Source: Escherichia phage vB_EcoM_G10400. From it: a stretch of 64,000 nucleotides of DNA. Position 1 is the stretch's first letter. The number at the start of each line of letters is the position of its first letter. Shown here piece after piece: positions 15,045-38,971 of this stretch. The notes under the pieces are model-generated. The model ran no database searches, was not told where the DNA came from, and saw nothing but the letters and a program-made list of their open reading frames with translations. Location: sequence record MK327937.1. One strand, written 5' to 3'. Position numbers and translations under genes: made by a program.

Positions 15045-15074
15045 ACTATAACACAACACGAGGGACTTGTAAAC
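15045..15074 (-). promoter_or_regulatory. Candidate early promoter (GTTTAC -35, 18-nt spacer, TATAGT -10)
   Basis: Minus-strand GTTTAC at 15069-15074 and TATAGT at 15045-15050; part of a ~50-bp cassette repeated at 30281-30334. Confidence 0.5.
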
Positions 15075-17131
15075 TACATTTTGAACTTTTTAGACATTCC
15101 GTTGATGTTAACCAAAGAAGCCAAGATTTGAGAAACTTCATTTTCCTCTTCTTTTGATTCTTCTACAAGGAATTGATTAAATCCAGCCATTGGACGAACT
15201 TCACCAGTTTCCATTAGATGGTCTCCATCATATACTGATTCTTCTAATTGTTCAGAAGGAGGAACGATTGTACCTTCGATTAGATACTTGTTATAAGCAG
15301 TTTCTTTCATAAAGTACGTACTTACTTTATTAATCTTCAGTAAAATTCCACGTGGTAGAATAACTTCAGCTTCTGATGGAAATCCTGATAAATGACCTGG
15401 AACGATAACTTTGATTCGCTCAGCTCCTTTAATTATCATACCCACGCTAGTTTCTGCATCTTCATTAGCATATGTAGAATGACTACCCATATGCATCAAA
15501 TCTTCTGCATCAACGGAACCTTCTCCTTCACCAGAAAATACTGCGCCGGAATCATCTAGAGCCATATAGTTTTTACCATGCTCACCGAAGATATTTGGTT
15601 TAAGCGATGTGGATACGAAGTTCTTGAAATAGAACATTTTATTTTCAATGTTATGACGCAAAGTTTTAAAGGTAACTTCTTGCCCACGGTAAAGTGTAGT
15701 TCCTGGAGGAAGAACTGATCCTTTGGCAAAGGCAGAATCTAACGTCTCGATGTGCTTAATAGCTCGTTCCATGTATTCTTCACGGGTAGAATCTGGTTTA
15801 CCCAAAAGGAACGAGTTCATTTCAACATATGAATCTGCACAATAATCTTCAATTACATCAGATTCAGCCTGAGTCAGTCCTTTTGGAGCTACTTCGGTGC
15901 TTGCGTATTCATATGCCTGGGCAGCAGATTCATTAATCAATTTATAAATGCCATTCATGACAAATTGAATAATAGCTGTCTTTTCATCTGGTGTGGTTTT
16001 AGAACCTTTAACTAAATCATTAATAATTTTCTTAATAACATCAAAGCTATTAGAAATATTAATGTCAGCAAGATCGCTTAAAATTTTATCAGTTTTATAA
16101 TCAAAGAATTCTTTATTCTTTAAATATTCTTGAGAACCTTGATATGTTATATCGCTCTGCAACTTGATAGATGGATCACGTAAACGTGCATGGGCCAATG
16201 CAATATGATTTCGGAAGCTTTCTAGTTCATAATCGTTAGATTTAAAACGAGAAGCACTTCTCATACCACCGATAGCTCCTTTGCTGAAGTTTGAACCAAT
16301 CTGGATAACGCCAGAGTTCATCGGACCTTCTGCTTTATATACCGGAACTTTAGATTCAAACTCTTGATATTTCTTGGCAGCAAAGCTATCACCCTGAAGT
16401 GAAGCATCAACAGTAGAATATTGAGCTTGTGCTGCTAATCGACGACTTATTTTAGTTTTCTGAATAACAGCTTGGTCCGTGCGCTTATCATTTTCTAAAG
16501 CAATAGAAGCAGCAACAGCGACAGCTTTAGGAACAGCATTTCCTGTTTTAACGTCTACATAAACATCACCGACCTTTGATTCAACTTTTGTGAATAACTC
16601 AGTTGAAATAGGAGGTACACCTGGAATGTCTTCTAAATTGGCATTTTTACGGTAAACCATAATATATGCATATTTCTTATCATAGTCCCAGATTTCCTTT
16701 AAAAGAACATATCGACCTGCTCCTTTAGTACGTACTAAACGGTCAGCAATAACTTGCATTTGACGAGCTGCGCCATTTGTTTTACTTTTTAGTACGCGGA
16801 ATAGGCATGCGTCGATTTTATACTGTTTCATTGTTTGAAGAGCAGTATCAAAAACGGCATTAATGACACCAATTGGATTTCCACCCAAGTTTTTAAGCTT
16901 AACTAATGATAGTTTCTCATTAACACCTATCATTACGATATGCATCATTTTATCGCCTGGCTTAACGTTTTTATTCGTATCACCACCAGAGGTGTATGTA
17001 CAAAATCTAAATCCAGGAAGCACGCTTTCTTCGCCGGCTTGAATAGCAAAAATTTGTGGTATTTTATGCTTAGGATTTAAGTTAACAACCGGCGCCGAAG
17101 CGCCGTCAAATAATTCTGTAATAAGTTCCAT
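15074..17131 (-). CDS. Alt-like ADP-ribosyltransferase paralog
   Basis: 685 aa; N-terminus MELITELFD and blocks shared with the adjacent alt; ART signature residues present (TLYRGQ, FVSTSL, EAEVILPRG). Confidence 0.75.
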   Translation of the reverse strand: MELITELFDGASAPVVNLNPKHKIPQIFAIQAGEESVLPGFRFCTYTSGGDTNKNVKPGDKMMHIVMIGVNEKLSLVKLKNLGGNPIGVINAVFDTALQTMKQYKIDACLFRVLKSKTNGAARQMQVIADRLVRTKGAGRYVLLKEIWDYDKKYAYIMVYRKNANLEDIPGVPPISTELFTKVESKVGDVYVDVKTGNAVPKAVAVAASIALENDKRTDQAVIQKTKISRRLAAQAQYSTVDASLQGDSFAAKKYQEFESKVPVYKAEGPMNSGVIQIGSNFSKGAIGGMRSASRFKSNDYELESFRNHIALAHARLRDPSIKLQSDITYQGSQEYLKNKEFFDYKTDKILSDLADINISNSFDVIKKIINDLVKGSKTTPDEKTAIIQFVMNGIYKLINESAAQAYEYASTEVAPKGLTQAESDVIEDYCADSYVEMNSFLLGKPDSTREEYMERAIKHIETLDSAFAKGSVLPPGTTLYRGQEVTFKTLRHNIENKMFYFKNFVSTSLKPNIFGEHGKNYMALDDSGAVFSGEGEGSVDAEDLMHMGSHSTYANEDAETSVGMIIKGAERIKVIVPGHLSGFPSEAEVILPRGILLKINKVSTYFMKETAYNKYLIEGTIVPPSEQLEESVYDGDHLMETGEVRPMAGFNQFLVEESKEEENEVSQILASLVNINGMSKKFKM

Positions 17132-17134
17132 GAT

Positions 17135-19189
17135 TTATCCTTGAACGAACTTGTAAGGCATGTTTGCAATATCTATACAAGACGCAATAATTCCAAGAGA
17201 TGATTCTACTTTCTGTTTAACATTTGATGAAACAAATGATGCAAAGTCAACTCTGTCTTCTACTTCAATATCACCTGTCATTGTAACTACTTCGCCGGTT
17301 TCCATTAGACGGTCACCGTCATAAATTACCGATTCGGTGAGTTCTTCTGTGGTCATAACTTCAGCTTGAATAAGCTTGTTGTTAGTTTTAACTGTTCCAT
17401 CATTGTAAGATGCATCGGTTATTTTATTAACTTTGACCATTAATCCACGTGGCAAAATGACTTCCATTTCATTTGAAGGTGCTAAACTTCCACCTGGTAA
17501 AACAACATTGACTTTATCAGCCCCAGTAATAACCCATCCAATTCCAACTAAATTATCGCTAGAATTTACTAGTCCTTCATCAGTTTTATCAATAGAAACA
17601 CTTAAACGCTTTTCGTCTGGTAAAACACCCACAGATGAATCAGTCATCCAGGTACCAAAAATATTTGGATATAATGATGTTGACACAAAGTTTCTAAAAT
17701 AAAAAACTCGATTTTTTACCATTGCTTCATATATTGAAGGTAACATTCGTTGTGAACGATACAAAGTAATACCTTTTGGTAATCGTTCACCATTTTTAAA
17801 GGCTGAATCTAAATTATCAATAGCTTTTTCTATGTCAGATGCTGTCAAAATACTTGTACGCTCATCTGGATTATATAATCCCAAAAGAGCATTATTTATA
17901 TCTACATATCCTGAACCTACGTATTCACGAATTCCGCGTTTTTGCGCCGGTGTGTATTTAGATGAATCTTTATTTTCGACTATAGGATGTAATGACCATC
18001 CAGCGGTAAGAGCATATCCACGTAATTCTCTTCGAATAATCTTTGTTTTTATTGCATTCCAAGAATTTTGTACTAACTCATTTGCAGCATCTTGGTTTAA
18101 ATGCGAATGTTTGTTAATATTTCTTTCAAACCAAGCACCTTTATATTTTTCTAAGGTATCATCGACGATAGAAGCAATAGTTTCTAAAGTTTTTATTGAA
18201 GTAATAGATTCTTTTTTTAATTTTTCTAAAGCTTTATTTTTTATTTCTGCATTAATAATGGATTCTTTATCTTCAGGAATTATAGAAGCTTCTCTGAATG
18301 CCATCCCAGCTGTAACACTGCTAAGAGCATTCTCTAGTGCAAATCCTGAAGTAGAAATTACCGTTAATTCATTAGAATCAGAAATTAAAGGCGCGTCCGC
18401 TGGTTTATTTAATTCTGCCGCTGAAGCCTCAAATTTTTGAAACATCGGTGTTTCAAATCTAGAAGATTCCAATGACTGACTTTGTGCAATTGCTCTACGG
18501 GAAATTTTAACTTTAACGATTACAGCTTGGTCAGAACGTTTATCATTTTCTTGTGCAATAGATGCTGCAATTGCCTCATTTTTAGTTACTTGAGCTCCAG
18601 TATCTTTATTGATATAAACATCACCGACCTTCGATTCAACTTTAGTAAAGAGCTCGGTACTAATTTCTGGAACTCCTGGAATGTCTTCTAGTGATACATT
18701 TTTGCGATGTATAAGAATATATGCATACTTTTTATCATAATCCCAGAGTTCCTTAAGAAGGACGTATCTGCCACCTGAACGACTACGGATAAGTCTATCA
18801 GCAATAACTTGAATTTGTCGAGCTTGACCAGCGGTTTTAGACTTAAGAATACGAAGCATACAGGCATCAATTTTATACTGACGCATTGTTTGCATCGCAA
18901 CAGTAAAAACTGAATTGATATAATTAATTGGGCTTGGACCAAGACCTTTTAATTTAGCAATTGAACCTTTAGCAGTTAATGTAAAAGGAACAATATGCAT
19001 CATTTTATCGCCCATCTTTAAATCGCGATTAGTATCACCTCCAGATGTATAGGTACATAAACGAAAGCCTGGTTGTTCAATTGCATCATCAACATGAACT
19101 GAAAAAATTTGCGGTATTTTCTTCTTTGGATTTAAGTTTGTAATCGGAAGAGTAGTATCTTCGTCAAATAATTCTGTAATAAGTTCCAT
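17135..19189 (-). CDS. alt: ADP-ribosyltransferase Alt (packaged head protein)
   Basis: About 684 aa from second Met; sequence matches my recall of T4 Alt (MELITELFDEDTTLPITNL...); ART motifs TLYRSQ, FVSTSL, EMEVILPRG. Confidence 0.8.
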   Translation of the reverse strand: MELITELFDEDTTLPITNLNPKKKIPQIFSVHVDDAIEQPGFRLCTYTSGGDTNRDLKMGDKMMHIVPFTLTAKGSIAKLKGLGPSPINYINSVFTVAMQTMRQYKIDACMLRILKSKTAGQARQIQVIADRLIRSRSGGRYVLLKELWDYDKKYAYILIHRKNVSLEDIPGVPEISTELFTKVESKVGDVYINKDTGAQVTKNEAIAASIAQENDKRSDQAVIVKVKISRRAIAQSQSLESSRFETPMFQKFEASAAELNKPADAPLISDSNELTVISTSGFALENALSSVTAGMAFREASIIPEDKESIINAEIKNKALEKLKKESITSIKTLETIASIVDDTLEKYKGAWFERNINKHSHLNQDAANELVQNSWNAIKTKIIRRELRGYALTAGWSLHPIVENKDSSKYTPAQKRGIREYVGSGYVDINNALLGLYNPDERTSILTASDIEKAIDNLDSAFKNGERLPKGITLYRSQRMLPSIYEAMVKNRVFYFRNFVSTSLYPNIFGTWMTDSSVGVLPDEKRLSVSIDKTDEGLVNSSDNLVGIGWVITGADKVNVVLPGGSLAPSNEMEVILPRGLMVKVNKITDASYNDGTVKTNNKLIQAEVMTTEELTESVIYDGDRLMETGEVVTMTGDIEVEDRVDFASFVSSNVKQKVESSLGIIASCIDIANMPYKFVQG

Positions 19190-19241
19190 CATAGCCTCTC
19201 TAGTGTTTATTCTATTTATAAAATTAAAGGCCCGAAGGCCT

Positions 19242-30337: not shown

Positions 30338-31925
<1,588 letters not shown>

Positions 31926-31933
31926 AATAAAAT

Positions 31934-31947
31934 GGGCCTTGCGGCCC
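31934..31947 (-). terminator. Stem-loop after nrdB
   Basis: GGGCC-TTGC-GGCCC hairpin immediately 3' of nrdB stop on minus strand. Confidence 0.4.
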
Positions 31948-31952
31948 ACTCC

Positions 31953-32455
31953 TTAAAAGTATTTTTTAAAACTCATCATAACTTTATCATCAACATCATT
32001 ATCAATCTGTGCTACAAGGTAAGATGACAGTTCTACTTCTTGCGGCGCGGATTGAACATTATCAGAATTAAGGTATTCACGAATCCAAGGATATGGATGT
32101 TTAACCGGAGCATCGGTAATTGGGCATGGAAGACCGCACTGTTTCATACGAGATACAGTTAAGTAATCAATAAAGCTCCACATGCTATTTGTATTTAATC
32201 CAGGAACATCGCCGTCTTTAAATAAATGAACTGCCCAATCTTTTTCTTGGCGGTTAACTTCCATGAAAATATCAACTGCTTCTTGTTCACACTCTTGAGC
32301 AATTTTAACCCATTCATCGCCGTCAGTGCCAAGTTGAAGTTGACGAATAATATATTGGGTGCCTTTAAGATGAAGCTGCTCATCACGTGCAATGAACTTC
32401 ATAATCTTGGCATTACCTTCCATGATTTCCATGTTCTTATGGAAGTTAAAGGTAC
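31953..32455 (-). CDS. nrdB: Ribonucleotide reductase small subunit NrdB, exon 2
   Basis: Encodes ...TFNFHKNMEIMEGNAKIM... to C-terminus; 3' splice site placed after intron terminal G (32456) so that exon junction reads GCG-UGU-ACC (A-C-T). Confidence 0.75.
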
Positions 32456-33545
32456 CGTATGTTCGATTGAGTTCGCTAATTCTCAACCCGTTCTCTTATG
32501 AACTGCTGCATGTTACCATGCAGTCCAGACTATATCACAATCCCGGAGGGATTCTCCCCATTTCGAGTCGCTTGACCCTACGTCCGAAGACTAGTCGTTG
32601 AACCTTGTTTTGCAATTGTCGCCGTGCCATCGTTTATATGTTGATGGTGATAAATCTTTCTTATCACAATATGGACAATTCAATTGAATTCTATTTGGAT
32701 TTAATTTACATCTGTCATTATGTTTTAGATAAAATCCAGGACCTTTACCAATGTGACCACAAAAATCACATGTGATTTCTTTTTGTGCAGGATGGGTCCC
32801 GTTCTTAACCATTTCTAATGTTTTTGCTGATGTTCTTTTCTTATGGTCTTCTGATAAGAAATGATGTGAACCGTCATTTACCCGTTTTGATTGAGTTTCT
32901 GACTGCATTTTACCACCGCAAAATACATGAGTACCTTCTTTTATAGCTGCAATATTGCGTTCTTTAACTTTTGCAATATGCTCAGCTTGTTGAAAATTAT
33001 GTATACCTAATGCAACTCTATTTAAATTAGATTTACGCTGTATTTCACCATCTAAAAGATGAAATGTACCATTTTCTATCTTAGATTTAATAGAGGCAAT
33101 ATTTTTAGCTCGTACTTCAGGGATATTAAAAATCTGGATTTCTCTAGATTTTGCGGCTTTAGAAGCTAATTCAGAAATTTCTTCAGGAGAATATTTCATT
33201 CTAAGCTTTATAGCATGACAAGCCTTGTAATCTTTTTGAGCTAAATGTATATCATAATGTTCCTGTATAGAAAGGCACATCAAATTATCTAAATCATTAT
33301 TTTCACGGTTACCGTCTTTATGATGGATTTCGTATGTTCTTCCATCAGAATCTTTAGGTATAGGTCCGTTAGCATCTATCCAAATTTTTCTATAGTTCAA
33401 TTGTGCATCCTCTTAAAAGTATAATCATATTTATATTATACTAATTAAAGGTGCAAGCAAAACCTTGGCTGCTAGTTTTCCTATAAAGGACTTTCCAGCA
33501 ATTAAAGGAGTTTTCGATAAACGTTACCGTTTAAAGGCGCATTTT
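32456..33545 (-). mobile_element. Group I self-splicing intron in nrdB (1090 nt) carrying I-TevIII
   Basis: Exon 1 ends in U, intron ends in G; 3' region shares conserved core (GAUAUAGUC...GCAUGG...CAUGCAG) with the td intron; splice junction restores NrdB frame. Confidence 0.75.
32591..33400 (-). CDS. HNH homing endonuclease I-TevIII (full length)
   Basis: 269 aa inside nrdB intron; EIHHKDGNRENNDLDNL HNH motif and C-terminal zinc-finger-like Cys pairs. Confidence 0.8.
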   Translation of the reverse strand: MNYRKIWIDANGPIPKDSDGRTYEIHHKDGNRENNDLDNLMCLSIQEHYDIHLAQKDYKACHAIKLRMKYSPEEISELASKAAKSREIQIFNIPEVRAKNIASIKSKIENGTFHLLDGEIQRKSNLNRVALGIHNFQQAEHIAKVKERNIAAIKEGTHVFCGGKMQSETQSKRVNDGSHHFLSEDHKKRTSAKTLEMVKNGTHPAQKEITCDFCGHIGKGPGFYLKHNDRCKLNPNRIQLNCPYCDKKDLSPSTYKRWHGDNCKTRFND

Positions 33546-34221
33546 ACGCAAAAGATACATAAAAACGAATAGCTTCTAAGGCATTAATAACGTGCAAACA
33601 GAGGTAAAGAGATTTCATTAAAGCACGTTTAGCTTCGGCTTCTTGTTTAATAGCTCGGTTTAAACGAAAGACGGCATCAGGAGATTCTTTAGCTAGTTCT
33701 ACAAATTCTTTAGCATTTTCCCATTCACGAGTTTTAATCAGAACATCATCATAATAACGTCCAATGGATTCAGCACGTTTCATAATAGCTTCATCTAATA
33801 CAATCTCATCAAATACCTTTGACGGATCAGTATAAAGATTTCGCATGATATGAGTATATGAACGACTATGAATAGTTTCACTAAAAGTCCATGTAGCAAC
33901 CCATGTATCAAGGCTTGGGTCTGAAATTAATGACATAAGTACAGCAGATGGCGCACGACCCTGAATGCTATCCAAAAGTGATTGATACTTCAGGTTATTA
34001 GTAAAAATATCTTGCTGATATTGAGGAAGCTTGTTAAATTGTGCAGCATCCATCATCAAGTTTACTTCTTCAGGACGCCAGAAAAATGACAATTGCTTTT
34101 CGGTTAAATCTTCAAAAACTTTATGGCGTTGAATATCATAACGCGCAATACCAAGACCTGAACCAAAAAACATAGGTTCTTTTAAAACATCAACTGGATT
34201 TGTATTAAAAACTGTGCTCAT
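33546..34221 (-). CDS. nrdB: Ribonucleotide reductase small subunit NrdB, exon 1
   Basis: MSTVFNTNPVDVL... through ...EAIRFYVSFA; class I R2 ferritin-like fold residues. Confidence 0.8.
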
Positions 34222-34272
34222 AAATTTTCCGCTTAGTTAATAGTTGGTGACTCGTCCGTGAGTCAAATTATA

Positions 34273-36537
34273 TCATAATTTACAGGATGAACAATCTTCA
34301 GCTTTTGGAGTTTCTATTTCATAATCATCAGTACCAGAACCATCGCGGGTATTATGATAATAGAAATTTTTAATGCCATAATACCATCCGTATAGCATAT
34401 CATCAATCATTATTGACATTGGAACCTTTCCTTTTGGAAAAATCTGCGGGTCATAATATGTATTCGCTGAAGCTGATTGACATACCCATTTCAGCATAAT
34501 AGCTACCTGCGTAAGATAAGGTTTATTACCTTTCTTAGCTAATTTCCATGTATAATCATATAGGTCTATGTTATGTTCAATATTGGGCACGACTTGATTA
34601 AAGGAACCCTCTTTTGATTCTTTAACAGAGACTGGTCCACGTGGAGGCTCGATACCGTTTGTACTGTTAGAAACTTGGGAAGATGACTCACATGGCATAA
34701 GTGCTGATAGTGTGCTATTACGGATGCCAAAGAGCTTAAGGTCTTCCCGCAGCGACGACCAGTCACAAACGTATTTTGGAGCTGCGATTTGGTCAATCTT
34801 TTTATTGTACCAGTCGATAGGTAATTCGCCTCGAGACCAACGAGTGTCTGAATAATATTCACAAGGTCCTTTTTCTTTGGCGAGTTTAATGGATGCTTTA
34901 ATGAGTCCATACTGTAATCTCTCAAATAGTTCATGTGTTAAATCGTTAGCATCTTCATAAGAAGCAAAGTTACTTGCCAACCAAGCTGCATAGTTAGTAA
35001 CACCTACACCGAGGTTACGACGCTTTTTAGCTTTTTCTGCTTCAGGAACTGGATATCCTTGGTAATCCAAAAGATTATCAAGAGCACGAACCTGGACTTC
35101 TGCCAATTCATTAATTTTATCTTGGTCTTGCCAGTCAAAATTATCCAGTACGAATGCAGAGAGAGTACACAATCCAATTTCAGCATCAGGACTATTCACA
35201 TCATTTGTTGGAATAGCAATTTCACAGCACAAGTTACTCTGACGAATAGGTGCCTTTTCACGAATAAACGGAGTATAGTTATTCGTATTATCAATGAACT
35301 GTACATAAATCCTTGCTGTTCCTGAGCGTTCAGTCATGAGCAATTCAAATAGTTCACGAGCTTTAATACGCTTTTTACGAATATTAGGGTCTTTTTCTGC
35401 TGCTTCGTACAATTCACGGAAACGGTCTTGGTCTTTAAAATAAGAATAATAAAGTTCGCCACCCATTTCATGCGGACTAAACAAAGTAATGTAATCGTTC
35501 TTTCCGAATCGTTCCATCATTAGGTCATTCAGCTGGACGCCATAATCCATATGACGGATACGGTTTTCTTCTACACCTTTGTTATTTTTCAAAACGAGAA
35601 GATTTTCAACTTCCAAATGCCAAATAGGATAATAAGCAGTAGCAGCGCCGCCACGAATTCCACCCTGTGAGCATGATTTAACTGCAGTCTGAAAATGTTT
35701 CCAAAAAGGAATAACACCGGTATGGCGTACTTCACCCATGCCAATCTTAGAACCTTCGGCACGAATCATACCAACGTTAATACCAATTCCAGCGCGTTTA
35801 GAGATATATTCAACAATCGAAGCGGAAGCCTTATTGATAGACTTCAGCGAATCACCTGCCTCAATAACAACACATGAACTAAACTGTCGAGTCGGAGTAC
35901 GACAACCAGCCATAATAGGAGTTGGTAATGAAATCTGTCGAGTAGATACTGCTTCATAAAAACGAATAACATGTTTTAATCTATCAACAGGTTCATCTTG
36001 ATGCAATGCCATTCCAATAGTCATAAATGCAAACTGCGGAGTTTCATAAATTTGACCAGTGGTTTTATCTTTAACTAAATATTTTTCTTTTAATTGCATC
36101 GCCCCGGAATAAGTAAATTCCATATCCCGCTCGTGCTTAATTTTTGATTCTAAAAATGTAATTTCTTCTGCTGAATATTTTGACAACAATTCAGGGTCAT
36201 ATTTACCTGCATTTACACAGTAAGAAATATGGTCAATAAATGAACGTGGTTCATACTGCCCATAAACATGCTTACGAAGAGCAAACATTAAACAGCGTGC
36301 AGCTACATATTGATAATCAGGTTCTTCAACCGAAATAGAATTCGCAGCAGCCTTAATGACAATAGTCTGAATATCATCAGTTGTCATTCCATCACGGAGA
36401 TATGATTTAATATTTTCATATAATTCATAAGGATCTACTGATGTTCCCTCAGATGCCCAAGATAAAACTTTAATAATTTTTTGCGGGTCAAAGCTCTGAG
36501 AAACACCACTACTTTTGATAACATTAATTAATTGCAT
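34273..36537 (-). CDS. nrdA: Ribonucleotide reductase large subunit NrdA
   Basis: 754 aa; ATP-cone N-terminus and class I RNR catalytic motifs (NLCCEI). Confidence 0.9.
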   Translation of the reverse strand: MQLINVIKSSGVSQSFDPQKIIKVLSWASEGTSVDPYELYENIKSYLRDGMTTDDIQTIVIKAAANSISVEEPDYQYVAARCLMFALRKHVYGQYEPRSFIDHISYCVNAGKYDPELLSKYSAEEITFLESKIKHERDMEFTYSGAMQLKEKYLVKDKTTGQIYETPQFAFMTIGMALHQDEPVDRLKHVIRFYEAVSTRQISLPTPIMAGCRTPTRQFSSCVVIEAGDSLKSINKASASIVEYISKRAGIGINVGMIRAEGSKIGMGEVRHTGVIPFWKHFQTAVKSCSQGGIRGGAATAYYPIWHLEVENLLVLKNNKGVEENRIRHMDYGVQLNDLMMERFGKNDYITLFSPHEMGGELYYSYFKDQDRFRELYEAAEKDPNIRKKRIKARELFELLMTERSGTARIYVQFIDNTNNYTPFIREKAPIRQSNLCCEIAIPTNDVNSPDAEIGLCTLSAFVLDNFDWQDQDKINELAEVQVRALDNLLDYQGYPVPEAEKAKKRRNLGVGVTNYAAWLASNFASYEDANDLTHELFERLQYGLIKASIKLAKEKGPCEYYSDTRWSRGELPIDWYNKKIDQIAAPKYVCDWSSLREDLKLFGIRNSTLSALMPCESSSQVSNSTNGIEPPRGPVSVKESKEGSFNQVVPNIEHNIDLYDYTWKLAKKGNKPYLTQVAIMLKWVCQSASANTYYDPQIFPKGKVPMSIMIDDMLYGWYYGIKNFYYHNTRDGSGTDDYEIETPKAEDCSSCKL

Positions 36538-37094: not shown

Positions 37095-37406
37095 TTACAC
37101 CGCCATTTTTCCTTTCAAGACGCCGTGGGGCTGATAATCTTTGAGAACGAAATCTTTAGGCCTGAGTTTAAGAATGTATTCCAATTGTTCTTTAGTAGAA
37201 AGATAGCGGAATTTATAAGGCAATCCGCCTATTACCAGTTCACAAAGCTCTTTAGGTTCACGACGCAAAATTTCTTTACATTGTTCTACGTGATTCATAT
37301 AGATATGAGTATTACCACCGGAAAATATCAAATCTCCCGGAATAAGATTACACATCTTAGCTACAATATGAACTAACGTAGCATATGATGCAATATTAAA
37401 TGGAAG
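37095..37406 (-). CDS. td: Thymidylate synthase, exon 2
   Basis: Encodes LPFNIASYATLVHIVAKM... C-terminal TS segment; ATG at 37407-37409 in ORF track is the intron 3' end (AUAAUG). Confidence 0.9.
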   Translation of the reverse strand, partial: LPFNIASYATLVHIVAKMCNLIPGDLIFSGGNTHIYMNHVEQCKEILRREPKELCELVIGGLPYKFRYLSTKEQLEYILKLRPKDFVLKDYQPHGVLKGKMAV

Positions 37407-38422
37407 CATTATGTTCAGATAAGGTCGTTAATCTTACCCCGGAATTATATCCAGCTGCATGTCACCATGCAGATCAGACTATATCTCCAACTTGTTAAAG
37501 CAAGTTGTCTATCGTTTCGAGTCACTTGACCCTACTCCCCAAAGGGATAGTCGTTAGGCATTTATGTAGAACCAATTCCATTTATCAGATTTTACACGAT
37601 AAGTAACTAATCCAGACGAAATTTTAAAATGTCTAGTTGCATCTGCTGCACAATCAAAAATAACCCCATCACATGAAATCTTTTTAATATTACTAGGCTT
37701 TTTACCTTTCATCTTTTCTGATATTTTAGATTTAGTTATGTCTGAATGCTTATGATTAAAGAATGAATTATTTTCACCTGAACGATTTCTGCATTTACTA
37801 CAAGTATAAGCAGAAGTTTGTATGCGAACACCGCACTTACAAAACTTATGGGTTTCTGGATTCCAACGCCCGTTTTTACTTCCGGGTTTACTGTAAAGAG
37901 CTTTCCGACCATCAGGTCCAAGTTTAAGCATCTTAGCTTTAACAGTTTCAGAACGTTTCTTAATAATTTCTTCTTTTAATGGATGCGTAGAACATGTATC
38001 ACCAAACGTTGCATCAGCAATATTGTATCCATTAATTTTAGAATTAAGCTCTTTAATCCAAAAATTTTCTCGTTCAATAATCAAATCTTTCTCATATGGA
38101 ATTTCTTCCAAAATAGAACATTCAAACACATTACCATGTTTGTTAAAAGACCTCTGAAGCTTTATAGAAGAATGGCATCCTTTTTCTAAATCTTTAAAAT
38201 GCCTCTTCCATCTCTTTTCAAAATCTTTAGCACTTCCTACATATACTTTATTGTTTAAAGTATTTTTAATCTGATAAATTCCGCTTTTCATAAATACCTC
38301 TTTAAATATAGAAGTATTTATTAAAGGGCAGTCCTACAATTTAGCACGGGATTGTCTACTAGAGAGGTTCCCCGTTTAGATAGATTACAAGTATAAGTCA
38401 CCTTATACTCAGGCCTCAATTA
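37407..38422 (-). mobile_element. td group I intron (1016 nt) carrying I-TevI
   Basis: 5' end UAAUUGAGGCCUGAGUAUAAGGUGACUUAUAC... and 3' end ...GAACAUAAUG match the T4 td intron as I recall; exon 1 ends GGU. Confidence 0.9.
37554..38291 (-). CDS. GIY-YIG homing endonuclease I-TevI
   Basis: 245 aa; MKSGIYQIKNTLNNKVYVGSAKDFEKRWKRH GIY-YIG domain; C-terminal DNA-binding region with zinc finger. Confidence 0.9.
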   Translation of the reverse strand: MKSGIYQIKNTLNNKVYVGSAKDFEKRWKRHFKDLEKGCHSSIKLQRSFNKHGNVFECSILEEIPYEKDLIIERENFWIKELNSKINGYNIADATFGDTCSTHPLKEEIIKKRSETVKAKMLKLGPDGRKALYSKPGSKNGRWNPETHKFCKCGVRIQTSAYTCSKCRNRSGENNSFFNHKHSDITKSKISEKMKGKKPSNIKKISCDGVIFDCAADATRHFKISSGLVTYRVKSDKWNWFYINA

Positions 38423-38971
38423 ACCCAAGAAAACATCTACTGATCGTTGATACCACTGCAAATCCAAATAGCCATTACGCACATTAAACTGATAGAACAT
38501 ATGACAAGGCGGTAATGCCATTTGCTTAAGTTCTGCCGGATTCCATGCTGAAACAATTTGACGCCTATCATTTGGCAGTTTTTTAATACGATCAATAACT
38601 TCTATAATTTGGTCTACACCGCCAAAATCACGCCATTGTTTTCCATAAATTGGACCAAGTTCACCGCTATGGTATCCTAAATCTTTTGCTTGATTTTCGT
38701 AATTTTCATCCCAGACTGTTTTGCCTTGAATTAATGAATTATGTTGAATTAATCGCAAATCATTTACGTTAGTACTTCCTGATAAGAACCACAATAACTC
38801 AGAAATACATGCATTCCAGGCGAGCTTCTTAGTTGTTACTGCAGGAAAACCTTTAGTTAAATCCCAGCGTAATTTAGTACCGAACAAAGCAATTGTTCCT
38901 GTGCCCGTTCGGTCATCAGTTTCATAACCATTTTCAAAAATGTCTTTAATTAAATCTTGGTATTGTTTCAT
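38423..38971 (-). CDS. td: Thymidylate synthase, exon 1
   Basis: MKQYQDLIKDIFENGYETDDRTGTGT... through ...DVFLG; catalytic PPCH motif present. Confidence 0.9.

Follow-up and report, generated by a model that had tools for sequence, protein, structure and literature searches.

nrdB Is Interrupted by a 1090-Nucleotide Insert with Exactly Defined Boundaries

We analyzed a window of 64,000 nucleotides from Escherichia phage vB_EcoM_G10400 (sequence record MK327937.1), in which nrdB lies on the minus strand in a T4-type gene order: nrdA (36537..34273), nrdB, denA (31949..31515), and rnlA (31498..30338). nrdA and nrdB are separated by a spacer of 51 nt, and mobE is absent from the window. All features described below are on the minus strand. 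The nrdB reading frame is broken and resumes further downstream, as had been noticed in a previous, sequence-only reading of this DNA. Exon 1 (33546..34221) starts at position 34221 and comprises 225 codons plus the first base of a cysteine codon; its translation ends ...ALEAIRFYVSFA and then meets a TAA stop codon. Exon 2 (31953..32455) is read in a different frame, supplies the GU that completes the cysteine codon, resumes ...TFNFHKNMEIMEGNAK, and continues for 166 codons to a stop codon at 31953. The N-terminal part of the Pfam family Ribonuc_red_sm is matched by exon 1 (7.9e-20, profile positions 9-141) and the C-terminal part by exon 2 (1.9e-11, profile positions 174-271).

The 1090 nt between the two exons (32456..33545) start behind U33546 and end with a terminal G at position 32456. 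The 5' splice site reads ...UUUGCGU(33546)|AAAAUGCG..., and the 3' splice site reads ...AACAUACG(32456)|GUACCUUU. Joining the exons yields a coding sequence of 676 + 503 = 1179 nt, which is in frame and encodes 392 amino acids, with GCG-U|GU-ACC (Ala-Cys-Thr) at the junction. The sequence-only reading had placed both splice sites, the 1090-nt length and the in-frame GCG-UGU-ACC junction at these positions, and all of them turned out to be exact to the base. The position of the junction is unambiguous: the intron begins with A and exon 2 with G, and the intron ends with G and exon 1 with U, so that the insertion cannot slide by even one base. The TAA codon that terminates the exon 1 frame (33546..33544) straddles the 5' splice site. 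In T4 introns, a stop codon at the 5' splice site keeps ribosomes off the ribozyme core.

Among public genomes, that of phage vB_EcoM_G4507 is the closest over 25 kb (99.2% identity, 96% coverage), and the part missing from it is the intron. G4507 nrdB is an uninterrupted, intronless coding sequence of exactly 1179 nt, and a multiple alignment of the window with G4507 contains a single, clean gap of 1090 nt between ...TTCGCAT and GTACC..., in agreement with the junction defined above. This alignment is the nearest substitute for a cDNA that sequence data offer. In the T4 and RB3 records, nrdB is entered as one coding sequence joined across the homologous intron, and the splice-site sequences of both introns are identical to those of the window.

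The Insert Contains a Predicted Group I Ribozyme Core

Judged from its sequence and from comparative folding, the insert is a group I intron with a full core. P1 (33537..33549) would be formed by exon residues GCGU (33549..33546) and intron residue A1 pairing with the internal guide UGCGC (33541..33537), and RNAalifold adds an A-U pair to this helix. The 5' half of the ribozyme (33457..33532) holds P2 (33532..33519), the 5' strands of P3 (33510..33505) and P4 (33500..33495), the P5 hairpin (33490..33479), the 3' strand of P4 (33475..33470), and the 5' strands of P6 and P6a (33469..33457). In the 3' half (32465..32613) we assigned the 3' strands of P6a and P6 (32613..32602), the 5' strand of P7 (32596..32592), P7.1 (32591..32582), P7.2 (32578..32565), the 3' strand of P3 (32559..32554), P8 (32553..32539), and the 3' strand of P7 (32532..32528), followed by P9 (32523..32506), P9.1 (32503..32490), and P9.2 (32488..32465).

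The structure made up of P1, P2, P3, P4, P5, P6, P6a, P7, P7.1, P7.2, P8, P9, P9.1, and P9.2, including the P3/P7 pseudoknot, was tested on seven ORF-trimmed sequences. Across its 79 pairs, 99.8% of positions are paired, a percentage that is inflated because the window sequence served as the template for the structure, and eight pairs show compensatory changes, a count that is unaffected by this choice. The compensatory pairs are located in P2 (three pairs), P5 (one pair), P7.2 (where U-A changes to C-G), P9, and P9.2. None of 500 shuffled controls matched the observed pairing and compensatory values, and sliding the 3' partners by 1-3 columns reduced pairing to 36-44% with no compensatory pairs. 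P3, P4, P6, and P7 are invariant across the seven sequences; they fit the structure and carry no covariation information. When no structure was supplied, RNAalifold recovered P1, P2, P4, P5, P6a, P7.1, P7.2, P9, P9.1, and P9.2 together with the same eight compensatory pairs, the pseudoknot region being outside the reach of this nested-only program. A U.G wobble at the 5' splice site, formed by U33546 and G33540, is present in all seven sequences. Two extra helices, P7.1 (GUC-UUCG-GAC) and P7.2 (GGGUC-AAGC-GACUC), lie between P7 and the 3' strand of P3, and their presence is consistent with the group IA label that the nrdB intron bears in the T4 record.

A search of the whole window against Rfam at the curated gathering threshold returned no matches, and at this default setting both ORF-bearing introns of the window (nrdB and td) are missed. 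A local search located RF00028 on the 3' half only (32506..32746, 35.6 bits compared with a threshold of 50, E = 4.5e-7). The score probably falls below threshold because a 785-nt, ORF-bearing insert in P6a splits the core: the ORF-less orthologues from PD112 and DCP80, which are nearly the same in sequence as the non-ORF parts of the window intron, exceed the 50-bit threshold of RF00028 with 68.6 and 74.1 bits, respectively.

These findings bear on a reading in which there is no intron at all and nrdB has been split or broken by an inserted, free-standing HNH gene. Many public annotations, which list two NrdB coding sequences and a hypothetical protein, would fit such an arrangement, as would the empty Rfam result at the gathering threshold. 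It is nevertheless so improbable as to be negligible, given a complete group I core with covariation whose ORF-less orthologues do pass Rfam, the U.G wobble and the terminal G of the insert, an insertion that is exact relative to the intronless G4507 allele, and the joined nrdB coding sequences in the T4 and RB3 records. The T4 nrdB intron has in addition been described as self-splicing (PMC2790892). For the window copy, we infer self-splicing, and likewise the cleavage chemistry, regulation, and actual mobility considered below, from the literature on T4 and RB3. [quoted passage not shown]

The Intron Encodes a Full-length I-TevIII

The loop of P6a contains an open reading frame (32591..33400) with a TTG start, 269 codons and a TAG stop codon, its start and length being those of the I-TevIII coding sequence in RB3. 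The 3' strands of P6a and P6 are formed by its last ∼25 nt, and the 5' strand of P7 extends at its 3' end into the stop codon. Scanning all 269 codons revealed no frameshift or stop, and the product matches Pfam HNH_3 with E = 6e-13 (48.7 bits, cut-off 24.8), in line with the complete 269-amino acid HNH protein expected from the sequence-only reading. The codons for the catalytic motif residues His-26, His-27, Asn-39, and His-48 lie at 33257..33325. Two zinc fingers are found by pattern match at 32612..32770 (C211-X2-C-X12-H-X3-C231 and C242-X2-C-X13-H-X3-C263). The predicted endonuclease would consist of two domains, the HNH nuclease at its N terminus and the pair of zinc fingers at its C terminus. 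A marginal hit to Pfam FlgM (anti-sigma-28) at residues 74-114 (26.2 bits, cut-off 25) probably reflects a helical, Lys/Ser-rich linker and was rejected as an indication of function. When I-TevIII was compared by sequence with solved structures, only chance-level matches were obtained (E ≥ 0.29).

The assignment of the element as the nrdB intron with I-TevIII, also made in the sequence-only reading, holds: 266 of 269 residues are identical between the window protein and RB3 I-TevIII, the differences being D23Y, Q59K, and A265T, and the window protein falls into one 90% cluster with TEV3_BPR03. The RB3 enzyme has been purified and acts as a dimer (PMC1865063). Its alanine mutants H26A, H27A, N39A, and H48A have lost cleavage activity (Robbins et al. 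2007, PMC1865063), and the pairs Cys-211/Cys-214 and Cys-242/Cys-245 hold zinc and are required for DNA binding (PMC1865063). In the window protein, these eight mutagenesis-defined residues (His-26, His-27, Asn-39, His-48, Cys-211, Cys-214, Cys-242, and Cys-245) are all intact and carry the same numbers. Homing of the RB3 intron amounts to 4.3% per recipient, compared with <0.1% for the T4 intron (PMC1865063).

Two of the three substitutions are widespread. Tyr-23 is also found in a20, SHFML-11, HY03, and S16, with Asp-23 of RB3 as the exception, and Thr-265 is common to T4, a20, SHFML-11, and HY03; at the RNA level, A265T corresponds to U-A versus U.G in P6a. Lys-59 is limited to the lineage of the window among nine aligned sequences. 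The exact 269-residue protein has been deposited as a “hypothetical protein” of phage vB_EcoM_G10400 (QBO63744.1) and occurs on three contigs, so the Lys-59 variant is not a one-off sequencing error.

The private Q59K substitution raises the alternative that the intron splices while its I-TevIII allele is inactive or weakened, the element then being stranded, like the T4 copy, and dependent for its persistence on vertical descent or general recombination. Natural introns often have a decayed ORF, as T4-type deletions and ORF-less copies both show. We regard this alternative as improbable, however: the window ORF lacks frameshifts and stops and preserves every experimentally required residue, position 59 is neither one of the HNH motif residues nor part of a zinc finger, the identical protein is present on three independent contigs, and the window intron is only 2 nt away from that of phage a20, which leaves little time for decay. 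Judged from its ORF and from the donor-type exon sequence beside it, the window intron is likely to be homing-competent, a conclusion that the sequence-only reading had drawn slightly ahead of what sequence can establish.

A Hairpin, a Late Promoter Motif, and an Operator-like Site Precede the ORF

Directly upstream of the ORF, a hairpin (33404..33455) is predicted with a folding energy of -14.9 kcal/mol (z = -3.4); none of 200 shuffled sequences is as stable, and RNAalifold recovers the same hairpin. It pairs the Shine-Dalgarno sequence (AAGAGGA, 33408..33414), whose GAGG is followed after 8 nt by the TTG start codon, with CCUUU. The T4 late-promoter motif TATAAATA (33428..33435) spans the end of the hairpin 5' strand and the loop and is identical in T4. 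This motif is not enriched in the window (13 occurrences compared with 8.8 expected), and we therefore call the promoter from its identity in T4 and from published work.

Endonuclease genes in T4 introns have been described as having a ribosome-binding site that is hidden in long early transcripts and exposed in short late ones (PMC2988022). By analogy, the hairpin would bury the I-TevIII ribosome site in early and middle transcripts and keep expression of the ORF off, whereas late transcripts from the TATAAATA promoter would start inside the 3' strand of the hairpin, leaving the ribosome site free and the ORF on. The window also contains an operator-like copy of the homing site at intron nucleotides 84-103 (33443..33462), in which TTTTGCTTGCACCTTTAATT matches the spliced exon junction from -8 to +12 (TTTTGCGTGTACCTTTAACT) at 17 of 20 positions. 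Such a site has been proposed, and only proposed, to serve in I-TevIII autorepression (PMC2988022).

Comparison with T4, RB3, and Related Introns

The sequence-only reading had stated that T4 carries a deleted, inactive version of this ORF, and alignment with T4 bears this out. The T4 nrdB intron measures 598 nt and lacks 491 nt of the ORF together with one A in the P5 loop. The 491 nt (32846..33336) include the HNH domain, and in the window the deleted segment is flanked by the imperfect direct repeats GAAGAACATA (33342..33333) and GAAGACCATA (32851..32842). T4 and the window differ at 494 alignment columns, 492 of which are deleted, leaving two substitutions; both splice sites, the whole ribozyme, the promoter, the hairpin, and the Shine-Dalgarno sequence are the same. 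The ORF remnant in T4 has 97 codons and is annotated as defective in the T4 record, whereas the window ORF is full-length. The T4 intron is mobile only when MobE assists (PMC2790892).

The RB3 intron (Eddy & Gold 1991; Robbins et al. 2007, PMC1865063) occupies the same gene and insertion site and has the same architecture, with its ORF in P6a. It is 98.8% identical to the window intron, a similarity far above chance, and, at 1091 nt, contains one additional A near its 3' end. The P9 helix of RB3 shows a compensatory change from G-C to A-U and a change from G-C to G.U, and in P6a U-A is replaced by U.G. RB3 harbors mobE between nrdA and nrdB, whereas the window has none there.

The ORF-less nrdB introns of PD112, BYEP01, and DCP80 (∼300 nt) share the insertion site and core with the window. 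They retain the late promoter, the hairpin, and the Shine-Dalgarno sequence, but have lost the entire ORF; the ends of the missing segment coincide exactly with two copies of ACAATTG on either side of the window ORF.

A second ORF-bearing intron, the T4 td intron with I-TevI, is present in the window. Like nrdB/I-TevIII, td/I-TevI is a T-even group I intron in a gene for nucleotide metabolism with a looped-out homing endonuclease ORF. In both systems, moreover, the DNA is cut some way from where the intron inserts, expression is under similar late-promoter and hairpin control, and an operator has been proposed (PMC2988022). I-TevI is, however, a monomeric GIY-YIG enzyme, whereas I-TevIII is an HNH enzyme that forms a dimer. 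I-HmuI from the DNA polymerase intron of phage SPO1 resembles I-TevIII as an intron-encoded HNH protein with an extended DNA-binding region, but introduces a single-strand nick and also cuts intron-containing alleles, whereas the I-TevIII dimer cleaves both strands. Taken together, the element is almost certainly the T-even nrdB group I intron in its full-length form with I-TevIII, and it would splice, home, and be regulated by hairpin and late promoter as its relatives do.

The Intron Is Flanked by a Donor-type Exon Tract

About 180 bp of exon 1 adjoining the intron (33546..33725) match other intron carriers and not the otherwise closest genome. Over 177 aligned positions upstream of the intron, the window is identical to G4507 at 120 (68%), compared with 175 (99%) for a20, SHFML-11, and RB3. 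Downstream of the intron, the window and G4507 differ at 8 of 942 positions, and in the exon upstream of -180 they are ∼96.5% identical. That identity beyond -180 amounts to only ∼96.5% indicates a recombination history more complex than a single event. The segment from -62 to -180 is hypervariable among phages, and the end of the tract at -180 may be a mere point where homology resumes.

Homing would proceed by repair of the cleaved allele from an intron-carrying genome, with the intron and some flanking exon sequence being copied into the cut allele. For homing with co-conversion, a donor tract biased to the upstream side is predicted beside the cut site at -14/-16 (PMC2988022). Read from the sequence, the donor-type exon tract next to the intron is a signature of this process, and together with the intronless sister genome it illustrates homing in nature.

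Phage a20, a Mosigvirus, has nrdB exons that are only ∼80% identical to those of the window. Its intron differs from the window intron at 2 of 1090 nt (99.8% identity), and near-identity extends from about -180 to +19. These comparisons suggest that the intron and ∼180 bp of upstream exon form a block that moved very recently between phage genera, the window being Tequatrovirus-like, an interpretation that we favor with some reserve. If true, such recent spread refines known biology and does not amount to a new mechanism.

Alternatively, intron and tract may have arrived independently of I-TevIII cleavage, either through trans-homing by MobE or through homologous recombination between co-infecting phages in a region prone to mosaicism. 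The defective T4 intron does move in trans with the help of MobE (PMC2790892), mosaicism is pronounced in T-even genomes, and both the reduced identity to G4507 past -180 and the hypervariable segment, in which the tract ends possibly just mark the return of homology, fit a history of general exchange. On the other hand, the window contains no mobE in its 51-nt nrdA-nrdB spacer, the donor-type tract adjoins the I-TevIII cut site and is longer on its upstream side, and the block from -180 to +19 is also present in a20, whose backbone is very different. We consider arrival by such routes unlikely, and prefer homing initiated by I-TevIII. MobE nicks nrdB at nt 122-126, and nt 505-515 were a recombination point in one progeny phage (PMC2790892). 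Trans-homing by MobE was rejected as the main source of the exon tract, as mobE is missing from the window and the nick site at nt 122-126 is outside the tract.

Distribution and Annotation of the nrdB Intron

The nrdB intron with I-TevIII has been known since the 1980s-1990s, its biochemistry was described in 2007, and the exact window protein is already in GenBank. The copy analyzed here is one more textbook mobile intron; it is ordinary and establishes no new principle. What it does bear on is annotation: the correct form is one spliced nrdB plus I-TevIII, whereas many phage records give two fragments and a “hypothetical protein”. The record of the source genome is probably annotated in the same way, as nrdB fragments and a “hypothetical protein”.

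The intron is matched by 190 phage records, 84 of which hold at least 80% of it. A sample spread across these matches contains four classes: full-length introns, T4-type introns with 54-56% coverage, ORF-less introns with 28% coverage, and, in unrelated phages, brief matches confined to the 3' core. As ∼478 records match the surrounding 25 kb over most of its length, the full-length form would be present in roughly one-sixth of the close relatives, a rough figure that includes duplicate records. Intronless, full-length, HNH-deleted (T4-type), and ORF-less alleles, the last deleted between 7-nt repeats, thus form a complete natural series in public genomes. Combined with the block that may have spread recently, this series could be used to quantify the cycle of gain, decay, and loss of a homing endonuclease in phages.

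Probable ORF Loss and Intron Transfer in nrdB

Two copies of the 7-nt direct repeat ACAATTG (window 33404..33398 and 32619..32613) flank the I-TevIII ORF in the nrdB intron of the window. In the ORF-less introns of phages PD112 and DCP80 (fetched loci L003:1501-1801 and L004:1501-1806, respectively), we find that one ACAATTG is left and that exactly 785 nt between the two copies are missing, with the late promoter, the hairpin, and the Shine-Dalgarno sequence all retained. Given the single remaining repeat, the exact 785-nt gap, and these conserved elements, the ORF-less nrdB intron looks like a deletion product rather than the ancestral state. The 491-nt deletion in the T4 intron is bracketed by the imperfect direct repeats GAAGAACATA (window 33342..33333) and GAAGACCATA (32851..32842), and this placement suggests that the segment was lost by slippage or by a microhomology-mediated route.

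The intron of Escherichia phage a20 (Mosigvirus; fetched locus L008, 1825..4093) is 99.8% identical to that of the window despite nrdB exons that are only about 80% identical, and the near-identity extends across the insertion site from roughly -180 to +19 (exon positions counted from that site), together pointing to a recent intron transfer between genera. Stretches of 50-128 nt in unrelated phages that infect Pectobacterium, Klebsiella, Vibrio, Aeromonas, and Pseudomonas match the 3' part of the ribozyme core (window 32456..32536; intron nt 1010-1090, from the P7 3' strand to P9.2) at 80-96% identity; they presumably represent further group I introns of this subclass.

Between nrdA and nrdB, RB3 and T4 carry mobE, HY03 and S16 carry a gene with a homing endonuclease annotation, and the window contains only a 51-nt spacer (34222..34272). 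As this nrdA-nrdB spacer holds no mobE, the window lineage is intron-plus and mobE-minus.

Features of the I-TevIII Protein

Two substitutions are private to the window lineage among the nine aligned nrdB introns: a G to A change in the P9.2 loop (window 32472) and a C to A change that replaces Gln-59 of I-TevIII with lysine (Q59K; window 33224). In the stretch that links the HNH domain to the zinc fingers (window 33070..32780, residues ∼111-207), a G-(T/S/I)-H-x-F-like motif recurs five times at intervals of about 21-24 residues (NGTFH, LGIHNF, EGTHVF, DGSHHF, and NGTHP; four confirmed by pattern search, the fifth by eye only), and the motif looks like a small, repeated DNA-binding module. 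Residues 74-114 (window 33181..33059) give a marginal match to the Pfam FlgM family of anti-sigma-28 factors (26.2 bits versus a cut-off of 25), which probably reflects the composition of a helical linker.

A Second Intron, Public Annotation, and Other Genes

A group I intron with a full-length I-TevI also interrupts the thymidylate synthase gene td (window 37095..38971, minus strand). The two td halves (38971..38420 and 37409..37095) and the 245-residue I-TevI ORF (38291..37554; Pfam matches to GIY-YIG, I-TevI_ZnF, and I-TevI_DNA-bd) lie on the minus strand. The Rfam score of the td intron is 42.5 bits (37455..37685), below the threshold of 50, as is that of the nrdB intron.

Many deposited T4-like genomes list intron-containing nrdB as a pair of separate CDSs and label I-TevIII a hypothetical protein; QBO63744.1 (“hypothetical protein,” phage vB_EcoM_G10400) is the exact I-TevIII protein of the window. 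Elsewhere in the window (15074..19192, minus strand), we located a tandem pair of 685-residue, Alt-like paralogues, each with an ADP-ribosyltransferase domain; G4507, the closest genome, likewise has both in tandem.
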